From Eledone cirrhosa (Eukaryota), in contig OZ024762.1 in the NCBI GenBank assembly GCA_964016885.1, positions 29,202,001-29,266,000 of the forward strand: DNA of 64,000 nt, given 5' to 3'. The notes below the pieces were generated by a model. It was given only the letters and a program-made list of their open reading frames with translations. It did no database searches and was not told the DNA's origin. The translations under genes and the position numbers were made by a program. This document shows, piece after piece, positions 1 to 15,300 of the stretch; position 1 is the stretch's first letter, and each line of letters opens with the position of its first letter.

Positions 1-3000
1 ACTTATCCCTCTTATACCCAGTTTCTCTCTCAACACATCACATGTCCATACCACCTCAGTCATCTCTCCCACACACCACAACTTATCCCTCTTATACACA
101 GTTTCTCTCTCAACTCATCACATGTCCATACCACCTCAGTCTCCTCTCCCGTACACTACATTCTATCCTTCTCAGATACAGTTTCTCTCTCAACACATTA
201 CATGTCCATACCACCTCAGTCTCCTCTGCCGTACACTACATTCTATCCCTCTCAGACACAGTTTCTCTCTCTACACATCACATGTCCATACCACCTCAGT
301 CTCCTGTCCCGTACACTACATTCTATCCCTCTCAGACACAGTTTCTCTCTCAACACATCACATGTCCATACCACCTCAGTCTCCTCTCCCGTACACTACA
401 TTCTATCCCTCTCAGACACAGTTTCTCTCTCAACACATCACATGTCCATACCACCTCAGTCTCCTGTCCCGTACACTACATTCTATCCTTCTCAGACACA
501 GTTTCTCTCTCAACACATCACATGTCCATACCACCTCAGTCTCCTCTCCCGTACACTACATTCTATCCCTCTCAGACACAGTTTCTCTCTCAACACATCA
601 CATGTCCATACCACCTCAGTCTCCTCTCCCGTACACTACATTCTATCCTTCTCAGATACAGTTTCTCTCTCAACACATTACATGTCCATACCACCTCAGT
701 CTCCTCTGCCGTACACTACATTCTATCCCTCTCAGACACAGTTTCTATCACAACACATCACATGTCCATACCACCTCAGTCTCCTCTCCCGTACACTACA
801 TTCTATCCCTCTCAGACACAGTTTCTCTCTCAACACATCACATGTCCATACCATCGCAGCCTTCTCTCCCACACACCACAACTTATCCCTGTTATACACA
901 GTTTCACACTCATCACATCACATGTCCATTCCATCTCAGTCTTCTCTCCCACACACCACAACTTATCCCTCTTATACACAGTTTCTCTCTCAACTCATCA
1001 CATGTCCATACCACCTCAGTCATCTCTCCCACACACCACAACTTATCCCTCTTATACACAGTTTCTCTCTCAACACATCACATGTACATACCATCTCAAT
1101 CTTCTCTCCCACACACCACAACTTATCCCTCTTATACACAGTTAATCTCTCAACACATCACATGACCATACCACCTCAGTCATCTCTCTCACACACCACA
1201 ACTTATCCCTCTTATACACAGTTTCTCTCTCAACACATCACATGTCCATACCACCTCAGTCTTCTCTCCCACACACCACAACTTATCCCTCTTATACACA
1301 GTTTCTCTCTCAACACATTACATGTCCATACCACCTCAGTCTCCTCTCCCGTACACTACATTCTATCCCTCTCAGATACAGTTTCTCTCTCAACACATCA
1401 CATGTCCATACCACCTCAGTCTCCTCGCCCGTACACTACATTCTATCCCTCTCAGATACAGTTTCTCTCTCAACACATTACATGTCCATACCACCTCAGT
1501 CTCCTCTCCCGTACACTACATTCTATCCCTCTCAGATACAGTTTCTCTCTCAACACATTACATGTCCATACCACCTCAGTCTCCTCTCCCGTACACTACA
1601 TTCTATCCCTCTCAGATACAGTTTCTCTCTCAACACATCACATGTCCATACCACCTCAGTCTCCTCTCCCGTACACTACATTCTATCCCTCTCAGATACA
1701 GTTTCTCTCTCAACACATCACATGTCCATACCACCTCAGTCTCCTCTCCCGTACACTACATTCTATCCTTCTCAGACACAGTTTCTCTCTCAACACATCA
1801 CATGTCCATACCACCTCAGTCTATTCTCCCGTACACTACATTCTATCCCTCTCAGACACAGTTTCTCTCTCAACACATCACATGTCCATACCACCTCAGT
1901 ATCCTCTCCCGTACACTACATTCTATCCTTCTCAGAGACAGTTTCTCTCTCAACACATTACATGTCCATACCACCTCAGTCTCCTCTCCCGTACACTACA
2001 TTCTATCCCTCTCAGACACAGTTTCTCTCTCAACACATCACATGTACATACCACCTCAGTCTCCTCTCCCGTACACTACATTATATCCTTCTCAGACACA
2101 GTTTCTCTCTCAACACGTCACATGTCCATACCACCTCAGTCTCCTCTCCCACACACCACAACTTATCCCTCTTATACACAGTTTCTCTCTCAACACATCA
2201 CATGTTCATACCATCTCAGTCTCCTCTCCCACACACCACAACTTATCCCTCTTATACACAGTTTCTCTGTCAACACATCACATGTCCATACCATCTCAGT
2301 CATCTCTCCCACACACCACAACTTATCCCTCTTATACCCAGTTTCTATCTCACACTCATCACATGCCTATTCCATCTCAGTCTTCTCTCCCACACACCAC
2401 AACTTATCCCTCTTATACACAGTTTCTCTCTCAACTCATCACATGTCCATACCATCTCAGTCTTCTCTCCCACACACTACAACTTATCCCTCTTATACAC
2501 AGTTTCTCTCTCAACTCATCACATGTCCATTCCATCTCAGTCTTCTCTCCCACACACCACAACTTATCCCTCTTATACACAGTTTCTCTCTCAACACATC
2601 ACATGTCCAAACCATCTCAGTCTTCTCCCCCACACACTACAACTTATCCCTCTTATACACAGTTTCTCTATCAACACATCACATGTCCATACCACCTCAG
2701 TCTTCTCTCCTGTACACTACAACTTATCCCTCTTATACACAGTTTCTCTCTCAACACATCACATGTCCATACCATCTCAGTCTTCTCTCCCACACACTAT
2801 AACTTATCCCTCTGATACACAGTTTCTCTCTCAACACATCACATGTCCATACCATCTCAGTCTTCTCTCCCACACACTACAACTTATGCCTCTTATACAC
2901 AGTTTCTCTCTCAACACATCACATGTCCATACCACCTCAGTCATCTCTCCCATACACCACAACTTATCCCTCTTATACCTAGTTTCTCTCTCAACTCATC

Positions 3001-6000
3001 ACATGTCCATTCCATCTCAGTCTTCTCTCCCACACACCACAACTTATCCCTCTGATACACAGTTTCTCTCTCAACTCATCACACGTCCATACCACCTCAG
3101 TCTTCTCTCCCACACACCACAACTTATCCCTCTTATACGCAGTTTCTCTCTCAACTCATCACATGTCCATACCGTCTCAGTCTTCTCTCCCACACACCAC
3201 AACTTATCCCTCTTATACCCAGTTTCTCTCTCAACTCATCACATGTCCATACCATCTCAGTCTTCTCTCCCACACACTACAACTTATCCCACTTATACAC
3301 AGTTTCTCTCTCAACACATCACATGTCCATACCACCTCAGTCATCTCTCACACACACCACAACTTATCCCTCTTATACCCAGTTTCTTTCTCAACACATC
3401 ACATGTCCATACCACCTCAGTCATCTCTCCCACACACCACAACTTATCCCTCTTATACCCAGTTTCTCTCTCAACTCATCACATGTCCATACCATCTCAG
3501 TCTTCTCTCCCACACACTACAACTTATCCCTCTTATACACAGTTTCTCTCTCAACGCATCACATGTCCATACCAGCTCAGTGATCTCTCCCACACACCAC
3601 AACTTATCCCTCTTATACACAGTTTCTCTCTCAACACATCACATATCCATACCACCTCAGTCTTCTCTCCCACACACCACAACTTATCCCCCTTATACAC
3701 AGTTTCTCTCTCAACACAAAATGTCCATACCATCTCAGTCATCTCTCTCACACACTACGACTTATCCCTCTTATACACAGTTTCTCTCTCAACTCATCAC
3801 ATGTCCATTCCATCTCAGTCTTCTCTCCCACACACCACAACTTATCCCTCTTATACCCAGTTTCTCTCTCAACACATCACATGTCCATACCACCTCAGTC
3901 ATCTCTCCCACACACCACAACTTATCCCTCTTATACACAGTTTCTCTCTCAACACATCACATGTCCATACCATCTCAATCTTCTCTCCCACACACCACAA
4001 CTTATCCCTCTTATACACAGTTAATCTCTCAACACATCACATGACCATACCACCTCAGTCATCTCTCTCACACACCACAACATATCCCTCTTATACACAG
4101 TTTCTCTCTCAACACATCACATGTCCATACCACCTCAGTCTTCTCTCCCACACACCACAACTTATCCCTCTTATACACAGTTTCTCTCTGAAGACATCAC
4201 ATGTCCATACCACCTCAGTCATCTCTCCCACACACCACAACTTATCCCTCTTATACACAGTTTCTCTCTCAACACATCACATGTCCATACCATCTCAATC
4301 TTCTCTCCCACACACCACAACTTATCCCTCTTATACACAGTTAATCTCTCAACACATCACATGACCATACCACCTCAGTCATCTCTCTCACACACCACAA
4401 CTTATCCCTCTTATACCCAGTTTCTCTCTCAACACATCACATGTCCATACCACCTCAGTCTTCTCTCCCACACACCACAACTTATCCCTCTTATACACAG
4501 TTTCTCTCTCAACACATCACATGTCCATACCACCTCAGTCATCTCTCCCACACACCACAACTTATCCCTCTTATACACAGTTTCTCTCTCAACACATCAC
4601 ATGTCCATTCCATCTCAGTCTTCTCTCCCACACACTACAACTTATCCCTCTGATACCCAGTTTCTCTCTCAACACATCACATGTCCATACCATCTCAGTC
4701 TTCTCTCCCACACACCACAACTTATCCCTCTTATACAGAGTTTCTCTCTCAACACGTCACATGTCCATACCATCTCAGTCTTCTCCTCCGCTCACTACAA
4801 CTTATCCTTCTGATACACAGTTTCTCTCCCACACACCACAACTTATCTCTCTTATACACAGTTTCTCTCTCAACACATCACATGTACATACCATCTTAGT
4901 CTTCTCTCGCACAAACCACAATTTATCCCTCTTATACCCAGTTTCTCTCTCAACTCATCACATGTCCATACCATCTCAGTCTTCTCTCCCACACATTACA
5001 ACTTATGCCTCTTATACACAGTTTCACACTCAACACATCACATGTCCATACCATCGCAGCCTTCTCTCCCACACACCACAACTTATCCCTCTTATACCCA
5101 GTTTCTCTCTCAATACATCACATGTTCATACCATCGCAGCCTTCTCTCCCACACACCACAACTTATCCCTCTTATACCCAGTTTCTCTCTCAACATATCA
5201 CATGTCCATACCATCTCAGTCTTCTCTCCCACACACTACAACTTATCAATCTGATACCCAGTTTCTCTCTCAACACATCACATGTCCATACCATCTCAGT
5301 CTTCTCTCCCACACACTACAACTTATCCCTCTTATACACAGTTTCTCTCTCAACACATCATATGTCCATACCATCTCAGTCTTCTCTCCCACACACCACA
5401 ACTTATCCCTCTTATACACAGTTTCTCCCTCAACACATCACATGTCCATACCATCTCAGTCTTCTCTCCCACACACTACAACTTATCCCTCTTATACACA
5501 GTTTCTCTCTCAACGCATCACCTGTCCATTCCATCTCAGTCTTCTCTCCCACACACCACAACTTATCCCTCTTATACACAATTTCTCTCTCAACTCATCA
5601 CATGTTCATACCATCTCAGTCTTCTCTCCCACACACCACAACTTATCCCTCTTATACACAGTTTCTCTCTCAACACATCACATGTCCATAGCATCTCAGT
5701 CATCTCTCTCACACACTACGACTTATCCCTCTTATACACAGTTTCTCTCTCAACACATCACATGTCCATTCCATCTCAGTCTTCTCTCCCACACACCACA
5801 ACTTATCCCTCTTATACCCAGTTTCTTTCTCAACACATCACATGTCCATACCACCTCAGTCATCTCTCCCACACACCACAACTTATCCCTCTTATACACA
5901 GTTTCTCTCTCAACTCATCACATGTCCATACCACCTCAGTCTCCTGTCCCGTACACTACATTCTATCCTTCTCAGACACAGTTTCTCTCTCAACACATCA

Positions 6001-9000
6001 CATGTCCATACCACCTCAATCTCCTCTCCCGTACACTACGTTCTATCCCTCTCAGACACAGTTTCTCTCTCTACACATCACATGTCCATACCACCTCAGT
6101 CTCCTCTCCCGTACACTACATTCTATCCCTCTCAGACACAGTTTCTCTCTCAACACATCACATGTCCATACCACCTCAGTCTCCTGTCCCGTACACTACA
6201 TTCTATCCTTCTCAGACACAGTTTCTCTCTCAACACATTACATGTCCATACCACCTCAGTCTCCTCTCCCGTACACTACATTCTATCCCTCTCAGACACA
6301 GTTTCTCTCTCAACACATCACATGTCCATACCACCTCAGTCTCCTCTCCCGTACACTACATTCTATCCCTCTCAGACACAGTTTCTCTCTCAACACATTA
6401 CATGTCCATACCACCTCAGTCTCCTGTCCCGTACACTACATTCTATCCTTCTCAGACACAGTTTCTCTCTCAACACATCACATGTCCATACCACCTCAGT
6501 CTCCTCTCCCGTACACTACATTCTATCCTTCTCAGATACAGTTTCTCTCTCAACACATTACATGTCCATACCACCTCAGTCTCCTCTGCCGTACACTACA
6601 TTCTATCAATCTCAGACACAGTTTCTCTCTCAACACATCACATGTCCATACCACCTCAGTCTCCTCTCCCGTATACTACATTCTATCCCTCTCAGACACA
6701 GTTTCTCTCTCAACACATCACATGTCCATACCACCTCAGTCTTCTCTCCCACACACCACAACTTATCCCTGTTATACACAGTTTCACACTCATCACATCA
6801 CATGTCCATACCACCTCAGTCATCTCTCCCACACACCACAACTTATCCCTCTTATACACAGTTTCTCTCTCAACTCATCACATGTCCATACCACCTCAGT
6901 CTCCTGTCCCGTACACTACATTCTATCCTTCTCAGACACAGTTTCTCTCTCAACACATCACATGTCCATACCACCTCAATGTCCTCTCCCGTACACTACG
7001 TTCTATCCCTCTCAGACACAGTTTCTCTCTCTACACATCACATGTCCATACCACCTCAGTCTCCTGTCCCGTACACTACATTCTATCCCTCTCAGACACA
7101 GTTTCTCTCTCAACACATCACATGTCCATACCACCTCAGTCTCCTCTCCCGTACACTACATTCTATCCCTCTCAGACACAGTTTCTCTCTCAACACATCA
7201 CATGTCCATACCACCTCAGTCTCCTGTCCCGTACACTACATTCTATCCTTCTCAGACACAGTTTCTCTCTCAACACATCACATGTCCATACCACCTCAGT
7301 CTCCTCTCCCGTACACTACATTCTATCCCTCTCAGACACAGTTTCTCTCTCAACACATCACATGTCCATACCACCTCAGTCTCCTCTCCCGTACACTACA
7401 TTCTATCCTTCTCAGATACAGTTTCTCTCTCAACACATTACATGTCCATACCACCTCAGTCTCCTCTGCCGTACACTACATTCTATCCCTCTCAGACACA
7501 GTTTCTATCACAACACATCACATGTCCATACCACCTCAGTCTCCTCTCCCGTACACTACATTCTATCCCTCTCAGACACAGTTTCTCTCTCAACACATCA
7601 CATGTCCATACCATCGCAGCCTTCTCTCCCACACACCACAACTTATCCCTGTTATACACAGTTTCACACTCATCACATCACATGTCCATTCCATCTCAGT
7701 CTTCTCTCCCACACACCACAACTTATCCCTCTTATACACAGTTTCTCTCTCAACTCATCACATGTCCATACCACCTCAGTCTCCTGTCCCGTACACTACA
7801 TTCTATCCTTCTCAGACACAGTTTCTCTCTCAACACATCACATGTCCATACCACCTCAATCTCCTCTCCCGTACACTACGTTCTATCCCTCTCAGACACA
7901 GTTTCTCTCTCTACACATCACATGTCCATACCACCTCAGTCTCCTCTCCCGTACACTACATTCTATCCCTCTCAGACACAGTTTCTCTCTCAACACATCA
8001 CATGTCCATACCACCTCAGTCTCCTGTCCCGTACACTACATTCTATCCTTCTCAGACACAGTTTCTCTCTCAACACATTACATGTCCATACCACCTCAGT
8101 CTCCTCTCCCGTACACTACATTCTATCCCTCTCAGACACAGTTTCTCTCTCAACACATCACATGTCCATACCACCTCAGTCTCCTCTCCCGTACACTACA
8201 TTCTATCCCTCTCGGACACAGTTTCTCTCTCAACACATCACATGTCCATACCACCTCAGTCTCCTGTCCCGTACACTACATTCTATCCTTCTCAGACACA
8301 GTTTCTCTCTCAACACATCACATGTCCATACCACCTCAGTCTCCTCTCCCGTACACTACATTCTATCCCTCTCAGACACAGTTTCTCTCTCAACACATCA
8401 CATGTCCATACCACCTCAGTCTCCTCTCCCGTACACTACATTCTATCCTTCTCAGATACAGTTTCTCTCTCAACACATTACATGTCCATACCACCTCAGT
8501 CTCCTCTGCCGTACACTACATTCTATCCCTCTCAGACACAGTTTCTCTCTCAACACATCACATGTCGATACCACCTCAGTCTCCTCTCCCGTACACTACA
8601 TTCTATCCCTCTCAGACACAGTTTCTCTCTCAACACATCACATGTCCATAACATCGCAGCCTTCTCTCCCACACACCACAACTTATCCCTGTTATACACA
8701 GTTTCACACTCATCACATCACATGTCCATACCATCGCAGCCTTCTCTCCCACACAGCACAACTTATCCCTCTTATACCCAGTTTCTCTCTCAACATATCA
8801 CATGTCCATACCATCTCAGTCTTCTCTCCCACACACTACAACTTATCAATCTGATACCCAGTTTCTCTCTCAACACATCACATGTCCATACCATCTCAGT
8901 CTTCTCTCCCACACACTACAACTTATCCCTCTTATACACAGTTTCTCCCTCAACACATCACATGTCCATACCATCTCAGTCTTCTCTCCCACACACTACA

Positions 9001-10279
9001 ACTTATCCCTCTTATACACAGTTTCTCTCTCAACGCATCACCTGTCCATTCCATCTCAGTCTTCTCTCCCACACATTACAACTTATGCCTCTTATACACA
9101 GTTTCACACTCTACACATCACATGTCCATACCATCGCAGCCTTCTCTCCCACACACCACAACTTATCCCTCTTATACCCAGTTTCTCTCTCAATACATCA
9201 CATGTTCATACCATCGCAGCCTTCTCTCCCACACACCACAACTTATCCCTCTTATACCCAGTTTCTCTCTCAACATATCACATGTCCATACCATCTCAGT
9301 CTTCTCTCCCACACACTACAACTTATCAATCTGATACCCAGTTTCTCTCTCAACACATCACATGTCCATACCATCTCAGTCTTCTCTCCCACACACTACA
9401 ACTTATCCCTCTTATACACAGTTTCTCTCTCAACACATCATATGTCCATACCATCTCAGTCTTCTCTCCCACACACCACAACTTATCCCTCTTATACACA
9501 GTTTCTCCCTCAACACATCACATGTCCATACCATCTCAGTCTTCTCTCCCACACACTACAACTTATCCCTCTTATACACAGTTTCTCTCTCAACGCATCA
9601 CCTGTCCATTCCATCTCAGTCTTCTCTCCCACACACCACAACTTATCCCTCTTATACACAATTTCTCTCTCAACTCATCACATGTTCATACCATCTCAGT
9701 CTTCTCTCCCACACACCACAACTTATCCCTCTTATACACAGTTTCTCTCTCAACACATCACATGTCCATAGCATCTCAGTCATCTCTCTCACACACTACG
9801 ACTTATCCCTCTTATACACAGTTTCTCTCTCAACACATCACATGTCCATTCCATCTCAGTCTTCTCTCCCACACACCACAACTTATCCCTCTTATACCCA
9901 GTTTCTCTCTCAACACATCACATGTCCATACCACCTCAGTCATCTCTCCCACACACCACAACTTATCCCTCTTATACACAGTTTCTCTCTCAACTCATCA
10001 CATGTCCATACCACCTCAGTCTCCTGTCCCGTACACTACATTCTATCCTTCTCAGACACAGTTTCTCTCTCAACACATCACATGTCCATACCACCTCAAT
10101 CTCCTCTCCCGTACACTACGTTCTATCCCTCTCAGACACAGTTTCTCTCTCTACACATCACATGTCCATACCACCTCAGTCTCCTCTCCCGTACACTACA
10201 TTCTATCCCTCTCAGACACAGTTTCTCTCTCAACACATCACATGTCCATACCACCTCAGTCTCCTGTCCCGTACACTAC
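1..10279 (+). repeat. 80-bp satellite tandem array, left arm (continues beyond window start)
   Basis: CATGTCCATACCA(C/T)CTCAGT recurs every 80 bp (41, 121, 201, ...). Type B monomer: CATGTCCATACCATCTCAGTCTTCTCTCCCACACACCACAACTTATCCCTCTTATACACAGTTTCTCTCTCAACACATCA. Type A monomer: CATGTCCATACCACCTCAGTCTCCTCTCCCGTACACTACATTCTATCCCTCTCAGACACAGTTTCTCTCTCAACACATCA. All copies are in one orientation. Confidence 0.99.
10276..10279 (+). other. Target-site duplication CTAC, left copy (right copy 12376-12379)
   Basis: Intact monomer reads GTACA-CTAC-ATTCTATCC. Left junction is GTACACTAC|TGTAGCG and right junction is CGCTATA|CTACATTCTATCC. A 5-bp ACTAC reading is formally possible if the LTR is 1 bp shorter, but the terminal inverted repeat favours 4 bp. 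Confidence 0.88.
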
Positions 10280-10644
10280 TGTAGCGGTTGTCTCCCTTGT
10301 TTTGATTAGGATCTAGACGGGAAGTGGAACCCTTTCTGCAACTTCCGGTCAGAGCCCTATAAAACTAACAACTTTAAGCTTCCTTTCTCTCTTTGCCTTT
10401 TCGGCACCAGGTCAAGAGCCTCTCATTTGGCTCTGCCATTAATTTGGCCAACAGGCGCCTGGCCTTAGCCAGGCGCCCTCTGCCAGCCGCGTTTGCCTGG
10501 CAATCAAAACGGTAACTACTAACTTTGTTTCATTCTAACATCTATCTTTGACATGTCAAGTATTCTATCTACCGTTAATTAAATATTATATACACAAACA
10601 TTGTCTCGTTTTGTTACATTCATACACCCAGTAATCTCGCTATA
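10280..10644 (+). repeat. 5' LTR (365 bp)
   Basis: Starts TGTAGCG and ends CGCTATA (6/7 terminal inverted repeat). Matches 12011-12375 at offset 1731 with no difference seen by eye. Confidence 0.97.
10358..10364 (+). promoter_or_regulatory. LTR TATA box (TATAAAA); copy at 12089-12095
   Basis: CCCTATAAAA lies ~80 bp into the LTR. It is preceded by two opposed ETS-like cores (CGGGAAGT 10318-10325, ACTTCCGG 10341-10348) and followed ~25 bp later by a pyrimidine-rich stretch. Orientation agrees with the PBS and PPT. Confidence 0.65.
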
Positions 10645-10645
10645 T

Positions 10646-10677
10646 TGGTAACCCTGACGTGATACGAACACGCAGCC
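10646..10677 (+). other. Primer-binding site complementary to tRNA-Trp 3' end (18-nt core 10646-10663, extended to 10677)
   Basis: TGGTAACCCTGACGTGAT begins 1 nt after the LTR. It matches 16/18 to the known tRNA-Trp PBS TGGTGACCCCGACGTGAT (as in avian retroviruses). The reverse complement of 10646-10677, GGCTGCGTGTTCGTATCACGTCAGGGTTACCA, has a T-arm (GCGTG-TTCGTAT-CACGT), acceptor 3' strand and CCA. Confidence 0.88.
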
Positions 10678-10860
10678 GTTCATCGCTATAAGTGGTCACC
10701 CCCCAAAAAAGAAAAAAATAGCACATCTGGTTTTGTGAGTAACATTACGAATACACAGCAAATTTAGCGACAAACTATGAAAATACTCAAGGACACGCAC
10801 ACACGCACATGTGGAATTCGCACAGACATACTTTTTCTCTCACGCATCAATTAACTGTCG

Positions 10861-10997
10861 CATTTCACCAATATATATATATATGTTTCTCGTTTCTTAC
10901 AACGAACACTTTCAAAACAAAAAAAACATTTCACGATATATATATATGTTTCTCGTTTCTTACAACGAACTCTTTCAAAACACAAAAAAAAAAAAAA
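10861..10997 (+). repeat. Two-copy ~66-bp tandem duplication inside the element
   Basis: CATTTCAC..(AT)n GTTTCTCGTTTCTTACAACGAAC(A/T)CTTTCAAAACA(A)n starts at 10861 and again at 10927. Confidence 0.9.
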
Positions 10998-11557
10998 GAA
11001 ATTTGATATTCTTGAAAAAACATTTCAACAGGAACATTTATTTTCGATGAACTATTGCCTTTTGTTCTTCGTTTTCTTCATCGTTCAAGTTTTTTGTTTT
11101 TTTCCAAAGTTCACACCTATAATTATGCTGATTGAAGCCTTTCTTTTTCATCATTGTCACTTTCAAAATTGCACTATCATTTTCTCGCGCGTTAGAAATA
11201 TTTTTTTTTCAACCTTGTATTGGCACGTGTAGGCAGCATAAATTCTCGATTCACTGAGATGTCTCTACTCACAGACAGCCGCACGCCATTTATCACCAGG
11301 GATTCTTCAGCCTTAAGCTATATTCTTCTATTTGCCGGTTTATAAATTTACAATGTAAATTTACCGTTGATAACCGCGCATTTATTAAGAATGCTTATTT
11401 CTCTGGTCGCTGGCCTCTTGACCCTTCCAGGTCAACGCATTCTCAACATCGACCATCAACTTCGGCTGCTATTTCTAGCACTTTGCGCAACTCATTTTTT
11501 TCTAGAAAGAAATTTTTTTTACTGTGAATTTAAACACCGAATACGCTCACTCAGCGA

Positions 11558-11610
11558 GACAACAGCAGCAGCAACAGCAATATAACAGCAACAGCAATAC
11601 ATCAACACAG
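11558..11610 (+). repeat. Degenerate (CAG/CAA)n microsatellite
   Basis: ACAACAGCAGCAGCAACAGCAATATAACAGCAACAGCAATACATCAACACAG. Confidence 0.7.
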
Positions 11611-11998
11611 CTTCACCAAAGCCAGAGAATTTATTTTTGCAGCACTCTTCCTGTGAGAAAATCCATTCGGAGGTTGGAAATTTCACGATATACCACAGAA
11701 CAGAAACCACCTGCATTCATTCTCTGGAACACACTTTCTTTCCAGCTGTCATGTGATTGCACACCTGTGAACTATATTTTGAACTTTGAGCTCTTCTATT
11801 ACTTTTACTTTATTACATTGTATCTTTGGGTGATGGATAGATGGATGTCCAGTCGTTCTCTGGCCAAGAGCGGTTGGCTACCTTGATATCTATCATTGAT
11901 TTTTCCAGACATTCTTTTGTCGTAATTTTCATGCCTGTTACAACATTCTCGCCAACTTGCTACATATTTTCATTTCGATTTTTATACACTAAAATTCT

Positions 11999-12007
11999 GG
12001 CGGGAGG
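11999..12007 (+). other. Short polypurine tract (PPT)
   Basis: GGCGGGAGG lies 3 nt upstream of the 3' LTR within an otherwise T-rich region. It is short and interrupted by one C. Confidence 0.6.
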
Positions 12008-12010
12008 TTA

Positions 12011-12375
12011 TGTAGCGGTTGTCTCCCTTGTTTTGATTAGGATCTAGACGGGAAGTGGAACCCTTTCTGCAACTTCCGGTCAGAGCCCTATAAAACTAAC
12101 AACTTTAAGCTTCCTTTCTCTCTTTGCCTTTTCGGCACCAGGTCAAGAGCCTCTCATTTGGCTCTGCCATTAATTTGGCCAACAGGCGCCTGGCCTTAGC
12201 CAGGCGCCCTCTGCCAGCCGCGTTTGCCTGGCAATCAAAACGGTAACTACTAACTTTGTTTCATTCTAACATCTATCTTTGACATGTCAAGTATTCTATC
12301 TACCGTTAATTAAATATTATATACACAAACATTGTCTCGTTTTGTTACATTCATACACCCAGTAATCTCGCTATA
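12011..12375 (+). repeat. 3' LTR (365 bp)
   Basis: Copy of 10280-10644. Preceded by GGCGGGAGGTTA and followed by the TSD CTAC and satellite. Confidence 0.97.
12309..12314 (+). terminator. LTR polyadenylation signal ATTAAA (5' LTR copy 10578-10583)
   Basis: ATTAAA is followed by CA dinucleotides and a GT-rich tract (TTGTCTCGTTTTGTT), in the expected position near the R/U5 boundary. Confidence 0.6.
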
Positions 12376-15300
12376 CTACATTCTATCCTTCTCAGACACA
12401 GTTTCTCTCTCAACACATTACATGTCCATACCACCTCAGTCTCCTCTCCCGTACACTACATTCTATCCCTCTCAGACACAGTTTCTCTCTCAACACATCA
12501 CATGTCCATACCACCTCAGTCTCCTCTCCCGTACACTACATTCTATCCCTCTCAGACACAGTTTCTCTCTCAACACATTACATGTCCATACCACCTCAGT
12601 CTCCTGTCCCGTACACTACATTCTATCCTTCTCAGACACAGTTTCTCTCTCAACACATCACATGTCCATACCACCTCAGTCTCCTCTCCCGTACACTACA
12701 TTCTATCCTTCTCAGATACAGTTTCTCTCTCAACACATTACATGTCCATACCACCTCAGTCTCCTCTGCCGTACACTACATTCTATCAATCTCAGACACA
12801 GTTTCTCTCTCAACACATCACATGTCCATACCACCTCAGTCTCCTCTCCCGTACACTACATTCTATCCCTCTCAGACACAGTTTCTCTCTCAACACATCA
12901 CATGTCCATACCACCTCAGTCTTCTCTCCCACACACCACAACTTATCCCTGTTATACACAGTTTCACACTCATCACATCACATGTCCATTCCATCTCAGT
13001 CTTCTCTCCCACACACCACAACTTATCCCTCTTATACCCAGTTTCTCTCTCAACACATCACATGTCCATACCACCTCAGTCATCTCTCCCACACACCACA
13101 ACTTATCCCTCTTATACACAGTTTCTCTCTCAACTCATCACATGTCCATACCACCTCAGTCTCCTGTCCCGTACACTACATTCTATCCTTCTCAGACACA
13201 GTTTCTCTCTCAACACATCACATGTCCATACCACCTCAATGTCCTCTCCCGTACACTACGTTCTATCCCTCTCAGACACAGTTTCTCTCTCTACACATCA
13301 CATGTCCATACCACCTCAGTCTCCTGTCCCGTACACTACATTCTATCCCTCTCAGACACAGTTTCTCTCTCAACACATCACATGTCCATACCACCTCAGT
13401 CTCCTCTCCCGTACACTACATTCTATCCCTCTCAGACACAGTTTCTCTCTCAACACATCACATGTCCATACCACCTCAGTCTCCTGTCCCGTACACTACA
13501 TTCTATCCTTCTCAGACACAGTTTCTCTCTCAACACATCACATGTCCATACCACCTCAGTCTCCTCTCCCGTACACTACATTCTATCCCTCTCAGACACA
13601 GTTTCTCTCTCAACACATCACATGTCCATACCACCTCAGTCTCCTCTCCCGTACACTACATTCTATCCTTCTCAGATACAGTTTCTCTCTCAACACATTA
13701 CATGTCCATACCACCTCAGTCTCCTCTGCCGTACACTACATTCTATCCCTCTCAGACACAGTTTCTATCACAACACATCACATGTCCATACCACCTCAGT
13801 CTCCTCTCCCGTACACTACATTCTATCCCTCTCAGACACAGTTTCTCTCTCAACACATCACATGTCCATACCATCGCAGCCTTCTCTCCCACACACCACA
13901 ACTTATCCCTGTTATACACAGTTTCACACTCATCACATCACATGTCCATTCCATCTCAGTCTTCTCTCCCACACACCACAACTTATCCCTCTTATACACA
14001 GTTTCTCTCTCAACTCATCACATGTCCATACCACCTCAGTCTCCTGTCCCGTACACTACATTCTATCCTTCTCAGACACAGTTTCTCTCTCAACACATCA
14101 CATGTCCATACCACCTCAATCTCCTCTCCCGTACACTACGTTCTATCCCTCTCAGACACAGTTTCTCTCTCTACACATCACATGTCCATACCACCTCAGT
14201 CTCCTCTCCCGTACACTACATTCTATCCCTCTCAGACACAGTTTCTCTCTCAACACATCACATGTCCATACCACCTCAGTCTCCTGTCCCGTACACTACA
14301 TTCTATCCTTCTCAGACACAGTTTCTCTCTCAACACATTACATGTCCATACCACCTCAGTCTCCTCTCCCGTACACTACATTCTATCCCTCTCAGACACA
14401 GTTTCTCTCTCAACACATCACATGTCCATACCACCTCAGTCTCCTCTCCCGTACACTACATTCTATCCCTCTCGGACACAGTTTCTCTCTCAACACATCA
14501 CATGTCCATACCACCTCAGTCTCCTGTCCCGTACACTACATTCTATCCTTCTCAGACACAGTTTCTCTCTCAACACATCACATGTCCATACCACCTCAGT
14601 CTCCTCTCCCGTACACTACATTCTATCCCTCTCAGACACAGTTTCTCTCTCAACACATCACATGTCCATACCACCTCAGTCTCCTCTCCCGTACACTACA
14701 TTCTATCCTTCTCAGATACAGTTTCTCTCTCAACACATTACATGTCCATACCACCTCAGTCTCCTCTGCCGTACACTACATTCTATCCCTCTCAGACACA
14801 GTTTCTCTCTCAACACATCACATGTCGATACCACCTCAGTCTCCTCTCCCGTACACTACATTCTATCCCTCTCAGACACAGTTTCTCTCTCAACACATCA
14901 CATGTCCATAACATCGCAGCCTTCTCTCCCACACACCACAACTTATCCCTGTTATACACAGTTTCACACTCATCACATCACATGTCCATACCATCGCAGC
15001 CTTCTCTCCCACACAGCACAACTTATCCCTCTTATACCCAGTTTCTCTCTCAACATATCACATGTCCATACCATCTCAGTCTTCTCTCCCACACACTACA
15101 ACTTATCAATCTGATACCCAGTTTCTCTCTCAACACATCACATGTCCATACCATCTCAGTCTTCTCTCCCACACACTACAACTTATCCCTCTTATACACA
15201 GTTTCTCCCTCAACACATCACATGTCCATACCATCTCAGTCTTCTCTCCCACACACTACAACTTATCCCTCTTATACACAGTTTCTCTCTCAACGCATCA

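Follow-up and report, generated by a model that had tools for sequence, protein, structure and literature searches.

A non-coding LTR retrotransposon of Eledone cirrhosa carrying a 32-nt copy of its tRNA-Trp primer, most likely derived from read-through past m1A58

The window, that is the whole 64,000-nt stretch of DNA analysed here, is an 80-bp tandem satellite array whose sole interruption is an LTR element at 10280–12375. The satellite (1–10279 and 12376–64000) shows a strong C-over-G strand skew. The element is a young, non-coding LTR retrotransposon of 2,096 bp; its two 365-bp LTRs are identical (0 differences) and the longest stop-to-stop frame within it comprises 126 aa. All of its features are given on the forward strand. 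The 5′ LTR (10280–10644, termini TGT...ATA) and the 3′ LTR (12011–12375) are bounded by 4-bp TSDs at 10276–10279, inside the 80-bp satellite, and at 12376–12379. Eight other copies likewise have 4-bp TSDs and, as in the window copy, LTR termini of the form TGT...ATA/AAA. One base past the end of the 5′ LTR sits a first PBS, PBS1 (10646–10663), the complement of tRNA-Trp positions 76–59 including the CCA. It is followed by an A at 10664, opposite tRNA position 58 and in a place where T is expected, and by a 13-nt over-extension (10665–10677) that is the complement of tRNA-Trp positions 57–45 (T-loop, T-stem and variable loop). Beyond this lie a duplicated U5/LTR end with spacer (10678–10692), which equals the LTR end of an old subfamily, and PBS2 (10693–10703), the ancestral 11-nt PBS, now degenerate. 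The non-coding internal region (10704–11998) and a polypurine tract (11999–12010), immediately 5′ of the 3′ LTR, complete the element. The 5–7 nt that precede the LTR terminal motif (10631–10637 in the window, and equivalents elsewhere), near the start of minus-strand synthesis, are unusually variable among near-identical copies.

The 32 nt from 10646 to 10677 are complementary to the 3′ end of mature tRNA-Trp (positions 76–45), antisense and outside the LTR. A preliminary description had reported this match against a metazoan tRNA-Trp sequence. We took the host tRNA-Trp genes as reference instead and searched the genome with position 58 left free. The search returned 14 long matches, comprising 12 genes or pseudogenes and two LTR-adjacent copies. 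All 12 tRNA-Trp-like genes have A58, as do 13 of the 14 matches overall, the exception being a read-through copy with another base. For the nine of these 12 genes that were counted against the segment, 26 or 27 of the 29 gene-encoded positions agree. None of nine tRNA-Trp genes checked encodes CCA, which the element has. Reversed-pattern controls gave no match across the 3.0-Gb genome, and the resemblance to tRNA-Trp is therefore not due to chance. ARAGORN called no tRNA in the window, and an Rfam scan of it returned a chance hit alone (E 0.99) and nothing credible. No alternative base at 10664 was listed for two sequencing runs, which possibly come from the source sample and are not independent. 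No RNA data set was listed as containing the sequence, a result with no bearing on expression.

Much of the preliminary description survives this comparison. The continuation of the tRNA-Trp complement through 10665–10677 is confirmed against the host genes, and the predicted pattern was recovered, with A58 in all 12 host genes, T in the element (read as reverse complement) and CCA in the element but in none of the nine genes checked. Neither a T58-bearing tRNA-Trp gene nor a longer tRNA-derived copy with T58, either of which would have offered a simpler source, is among the 14 matches, and agreement with the host tRNA extends far past 18 nt. Two points need amendment. An 18-nt PBS does lie just past the 5′ LTR, but the ancestral PBS of the family is 11 nt long. 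The mismatch at A10664 is genuine but is not the only one, since PBS1 itself differs from the main tRNA-Trp gene at two positions and from a minor isodecoder (L077) at one. At tRNA position 47 several read-through copies (L082, L101, L119, L320) imply a U, which only one of the 12 genes found, a damaged one, possesses; missing genes or a modification are possible reasons.

The window family has at least 385 exact junctions in the genome, and a wider search gave 1,128 candidates. A search with the old form of the second junction only (the second PBS) gave 123 hits, 30 of which were fetched. In 24 of these 30 old-subfamily loci the 11-nt PBS abuts the LTR and the tRNA extension is missing; the other six have the insert. 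Because these older relatives without it exist, the insert is derived. The segment is thus part of a derived 47-nt insert in which 32 nt of tRNA copy are joined to 15 nt of U5 end; the old PBS survives on its downstream side. In a tree of 90 internal regions (midpoint rooting, one misanchored row left out) the copies that lack the unit form a basal grade, and the youngest clade of 53 rows (100/100 support) carries it throughout. Near the transition the two types interleave; five changes are needed, at least two of which are forced by well-supported branches, and the bootstrap values had yet to stabilise. One gain of the unit with some losses is compatible with the tree but not proven by it. 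The duplicated LTR end is usable for integration, as in one copy (L120) the TSD comes right after the unit. In five copies (L114, L115, L120, L121, L192) the 46–47-nt unit is itself duplicated, giving three PBSs.

The usual end point of plus-strand synthesis lies before m1A58, and strands that run further are described in the reports cited as failing to complete transfer (PMC8599865, PMC13191261). We consider it likely that the 32 nt arose when reverse transcriptase (RT) read through the tRNA-Trp primer past m1A58. RT would have copied the mature primer 14 nt beyond the usual stop, most likely once, and probably inserted dA opposite base 58, presumably methylated in this host; the A at 10664 would be that misincorporation, now fixed. 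The over-run strand then likely slipped back onto minus-strand U5 and annealed again some 15 nt upstream of the PBS, 10678–10692 being the putative landing site. From there synthesis would have run on via the old 11-nt PBS into the element body. An over-extended strand, normally a dead end, could in this way have yielded an intact element with two PBSs. The segment is now carried as ordinary element sequence, with PBS1 the main priming site and plus-strand copying still mostly stopping at 58. Such an origin, already proposed in the preliminary description, is supported by the pre-insertion allele, by what lies directly downstream of the copy (a duplicate U5 end, then the old PBS) and by many independent events enriched in errors at 58. 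To that description we add the return of the strand to U5, a second PBS, the occurrence of like events elsewhere in the genome and the MusD precedent of 22 nt already in print. The same U5 jump back is seen in two independent single copies of other LTR families (L134 and L099), and in L134 an exact 4-bp TSD comes after the LTR end that was regenerated. These two are the only clear cases of a return to the element's own LTR end among 26 one-off events, examined as 3-kb loci in which most LTR boundaries could not be fixed.

Similar products recur in this genome. About 30 further, apparently independent over-extensions of 24–52 nt were found, and the tabulated set comprises 33 events here together with two in metagenome contigs. 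There are 470 perfect 18-nt Trp PBS sites, and 194 of them (36 + 158) also match the tRNA at the four bases beyond position 58, which was left free; most of these 194 belong to amplified families. All sites in the complete subset of 36 were examined. Thirteen are the window family, and the other 23 reduce to 20 events once one segmental duplicate and two extra family-3 copies are removed. Position 58 is wrong in four of the 20 events (G, G, A, A; all transversions) compared with four of 280 other extension sites (Fisher p=0.0009). Two of the four errors are G, and a study with a laboratory RT reports a low level of this class where m1A is followed by A (PMC4787781); both A errors belong to a single family, itself A-rich at this place. 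The correct base is present in the other 16 events, so most read-throughs were faithful or were made on unmethylated tRNA. A variant of the account above, in which read-through in the founder was faithful and a single T-to-A mutation followed, is a possibility.

The end points of these events are also uneven. Ten of 20 one-off events end at tRNA positions 35–40 (p=0.003 against a simple uniform null over 25–53) and three at 25–29; this set consists of 14 one-offs from the complete 36 and six among the 100 listed of the 158 matches, where beyond the first 30 only T-type rows and one A-type pair were taken, and A-type one-offs are accordingly under-sampled. Of the six events extending beyond position 37, two have a wrong base at that position. 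In eukaryotic tRNA-Trp we take positions 37 and 26 to be methylated guanosines. Judged from the genomic copies, errors and end points tend to fall near the expected modified bases of the tRNA. Among L093, L285, L105 and L069, the longest read-throughs end at tRNA positions 28, 25 and 29. Errors are present in L093 at 58 and also at 37, and in L285 at 38 and 37; in L069, by eye, 5 nt appear to be skipped across position 37 at a short repeat. A different family (L201, L213) has two PBSs about 40 nt apart with A at 58 and three further matching bases, and bears no other similarity to the window element. Two JGI metagenome contigs (L320:227–263 and L321:701–728), which share one LTR unlike that of the window, hold read-throughs to positions 40 and 47, and the phenomenon is probably not limited to this genome. 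The viral contigs searched gave no match.

At least two other amplified families carry long tRNA-Trp matches. Family 2 is a gag-pol Gypsy with a split site in 28 of 30 loci (L141–L168), in which an 11-nt PBS is accompanied by a box matching tRNA-Trp positions ~56–37; this second box has been kept while the middle decayed. In five family-2 copies of different subfamily backgrounds (L140, L169, L100, L117, L271) the whole stretch is replaced by a 39–40-nt tRNA copy, with T, T, T, A and A at 58. In these copies the second box seems to have rescued over-run strands on repeated occasions. In family 3 (L290–L319, L092) a 32-nt tRNA copy bearing T58 is fixed, being present in all 30 of the 30 loci selected on their downstream sequence; we had considered this a split-site family like family 2, a reading which these 30 loci reject. 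The copy drifts, with substitutions common to subgroups. It is joined into the end of gag, and no DUF7041 hit was obtained in L092, suggesting that the same event may have deleted the start of gag.

We next consider whether the insert, having arisen by read-through, was afterwards kept for a function. The 32-nt site might bind tRNA-Trp far more tightly than the 11-nt ancestral one, or might catch over-extended plus strands in the manner of a long primer over-extension sequence; either is possible but doubtful, and the same applies to the proposal that the non-coding family thereby outcompeted its relatives. The binding energy predicted for the window copy is about −34 kcal/mol, and that for a relative lacking the unit about −8 kcal/mol, in a rough calculation that used unmodified tRNA not folded as a cloverleaf. 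The extended primer-template duplex offered as an alternative in the preliminary description would accordingly be favourable in energy. The presence of the unit throughout the youngest clade, the long matches in other amplified families and the retained second box of family 2 point the same way. The 13 nt of the extension differ by 0.03–0.05 per site between old and young copies and the internal region by 0.12, but 21–29% of internal windows of 13 nt match the extension in conservation, and the comparison of old with young copies thus gives no sign of extra conservation. The drift of the family-3 copy also speaks against retention for function, as does the good amplification of the 11-nt copies without the unit, which make up 24 of the 30 loci sampled from 123 hits.

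PBS1 differences are repeatedly restored to the tRNA sequence among near-identical copies scattered over the young clade, and the primer is therefore still copied. At position 58 only eight junctions of the window family genome-wide are not A; all eight are G and none is T, and four of them keep an unrestored PBS, a pattern that ordinary transitions would produce. The extension is thus passed on by inheritance. Its routine re-copying from tRNA in most replication rounds, by habitual read-through on a standing extended PBS, is rejected on these counts and seems to us most improbable. A nested copy (L324), which joins a restored PBS to a different base at 58 and an alternative base at 47, would fit such re-copying, as would the repeated conversion of family 2 to a full tRNA copy. 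However, no copy of the window family has T58, the base that prevails in the independent read-throughs, and all 21 of the A-type loci with a restored PBS that were examined belong to the family and retain A. An origin at the DNA level, by recombination or insertion from a tRNA gene, pseudogene or SINE with base 58 an ordinary mutation, is barely credible: tRNA-Trp pseudogenes do occur in the genome, but the match includes CCA exactly at the LTR end, stops at position 45, comes with no tRNA 5′ part (A and B boxes), gene flank, tail or TSD of its own, and has the same structure behind many unrelated LTR ends and in the two metagenome contigs.

Read-through followed by inheritance is the reading we prefer. 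The tRNA-Trp PBS, 4-bp TSD and TGT...ATA LTR termini are CsRn1-like Ty3/Gypsy signals, the same three features being given for the CsRn1 clade (PMC2582038, PMC3630058). By these cis signals alone, the window element matches a non-autonomous CsRn1-clade dependant, presumably mobilised by a CsRn1-type helper. It encodes nothing itself; the CHCC Gag knuckle and the PR-RT-RH-IN order are found in the coding families 2 and 3. The Mag clade was considered and dropped, as Mag elements are reported to have Leu/Ser primers and mostly 5-bp TSDs (PMC3286476); the CHCC knuckle, Trp primer and 4-bp TSD fit CsRn1. Three loci, L288 (G000:C1:204420000–204429900), L232 and L289, are chimeras of the window family with a coding Gypsy. 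Among them are a captured inverted fragment of the coding Gypsy (RT-RNase H, LTR and 18-nt PBS) within one TSD-bounded insertion, and a copy whose 5′ LTR derives from that same Gypsy. The captured RT fragment in L288 is 55–56% identical to the RT of families 2 and 3. L288 and L289 link the window family to a related coding Gypsy, and the captured fragments hint at co-packaging with a helper. A full-length helper element for the window family was not located.

In the accepted account, copying past m1A58 (or past 55/54) produces plus strands unable to finish transfer. Here, products of 24–52 nt were integrated some 30 times and at least two founded amplified families, and the window family preserves the states before and after the event as well as the junction. 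This gives an in vivo, germline read-out of the leakiness of the strong stop, of the rescue of over-run strands and of change in primer-site length. It also suggests that tRNA modification sites could be inferred from genome sequence alone, by a survey of PBS-flanking DNA in any animal genome. A wider proposal is speculative, and taken as a whole we think it unlikely: that in CsRn1-type Gypsy elements the germline m1A58 stop is leaky and over-extended strands are often rescued, that genomes record past tRNA-Trp modification, through errors at 58 and 37 and through ends near 37 and 26, and that selection keeps the new, stronger or split primer sites to which such events repeatedly give rise. 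If it were true, the second box of family 2 would be a long over-extension sequence adjusted to a stop at position 37, and the 32-nt site of the window family a captured super-PBS.

The closest published parallel is MusD/ETn, reported to have a 22-nt PBS with a conserved mismatch at m1A58 that the authors ascribe to misincorporation at m1A (bioRxiv 10.1101/2025.05.12.650695). Both systems have complementarity past 18 nt and a fixed mismatch opposite 58. MusD/ETn is an ERV with four extra nucleotides, whereas the Gypsy element described here has 14, with up to 34 in other copies, and its pre-insertion allele, junction and many independent events are in hand. In lentiviruses and spumaviruses the primer over-extension sequence is described as conserved, functional and ending at 55/54; read-through products are said to stop at later modified bases including position 37, and those reaching 37 to be unable to transfer (PMC13191261, PMC8599865). 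The window element resembles these in having PBS-adjacent, contiguous complementarity beyond A58, which reaches position 45. It differs in that long products were integrated and some founded families, and any function is putative. As regards selection, 21–29% of internal windows match the window extension in conservation, and the extension is absent from older relatives. As for the rescue of over-extended strands, the window family has no T58 conversions; family 2 has five conversions, indirect support that applies to family 2 only.

The CsRn1 reports cited above make no mention, in the text available, of an over-long or double PBS, and the window element is unlike the elements they describe in being non-coding. 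Ty1 and Ty3 are reported to have split (bipartite) primer sites (PMC5371799). Family 2, with a short PBS and a second box matching the T-arm and anticodon arm, is similar; the window family, by contrast, has an uninterrupted match. For yeast, inheritance of the primer sequence is reported not to occur (PMC5371799, PMC7472051), unlike the repeated restoration of PBS1 to the tRNA sequence here. Reverse-transcribed tRNA inserts in retroviral DNA are, as described, single laboratory clones and often come from non-primer tRNAs (PMC12220202, citing Colicelli and Goff); they too join tRNA cDNA to retroelement DNA but are not germline families. Helenus, Ajax and Cassandra TRIMp3 elements are described as non-autonomous LTR elements with small-RNA sequence inside the LTR as a likely promoter (PMC10886601). 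The window element is likewise non-autonomous with tRNA-derived sequence, yet here that sequence is outside the LTR, antisense and the primer itself. Membership of the Helenus/TRIMp3 group was rejected on the position and orientation of the segment and the lack of a tRNA call or credible Rfam hit. Our literature search, in which coverage of subscription and older papers was thin, found no report of 30–50-nt primer copies fixed in retrotransposon families. The core idea of an over-long PBS with misincorporation at m1A58, and that of an over-extension sequence, is already known from MusD/ETn and lentiviruses. What is new here is the length of the copy, the survival of both the earlier and the later state together with a junction that can be read, the double PBS and a genome-wide set of independent events in which errors and ends agree with modified bases.
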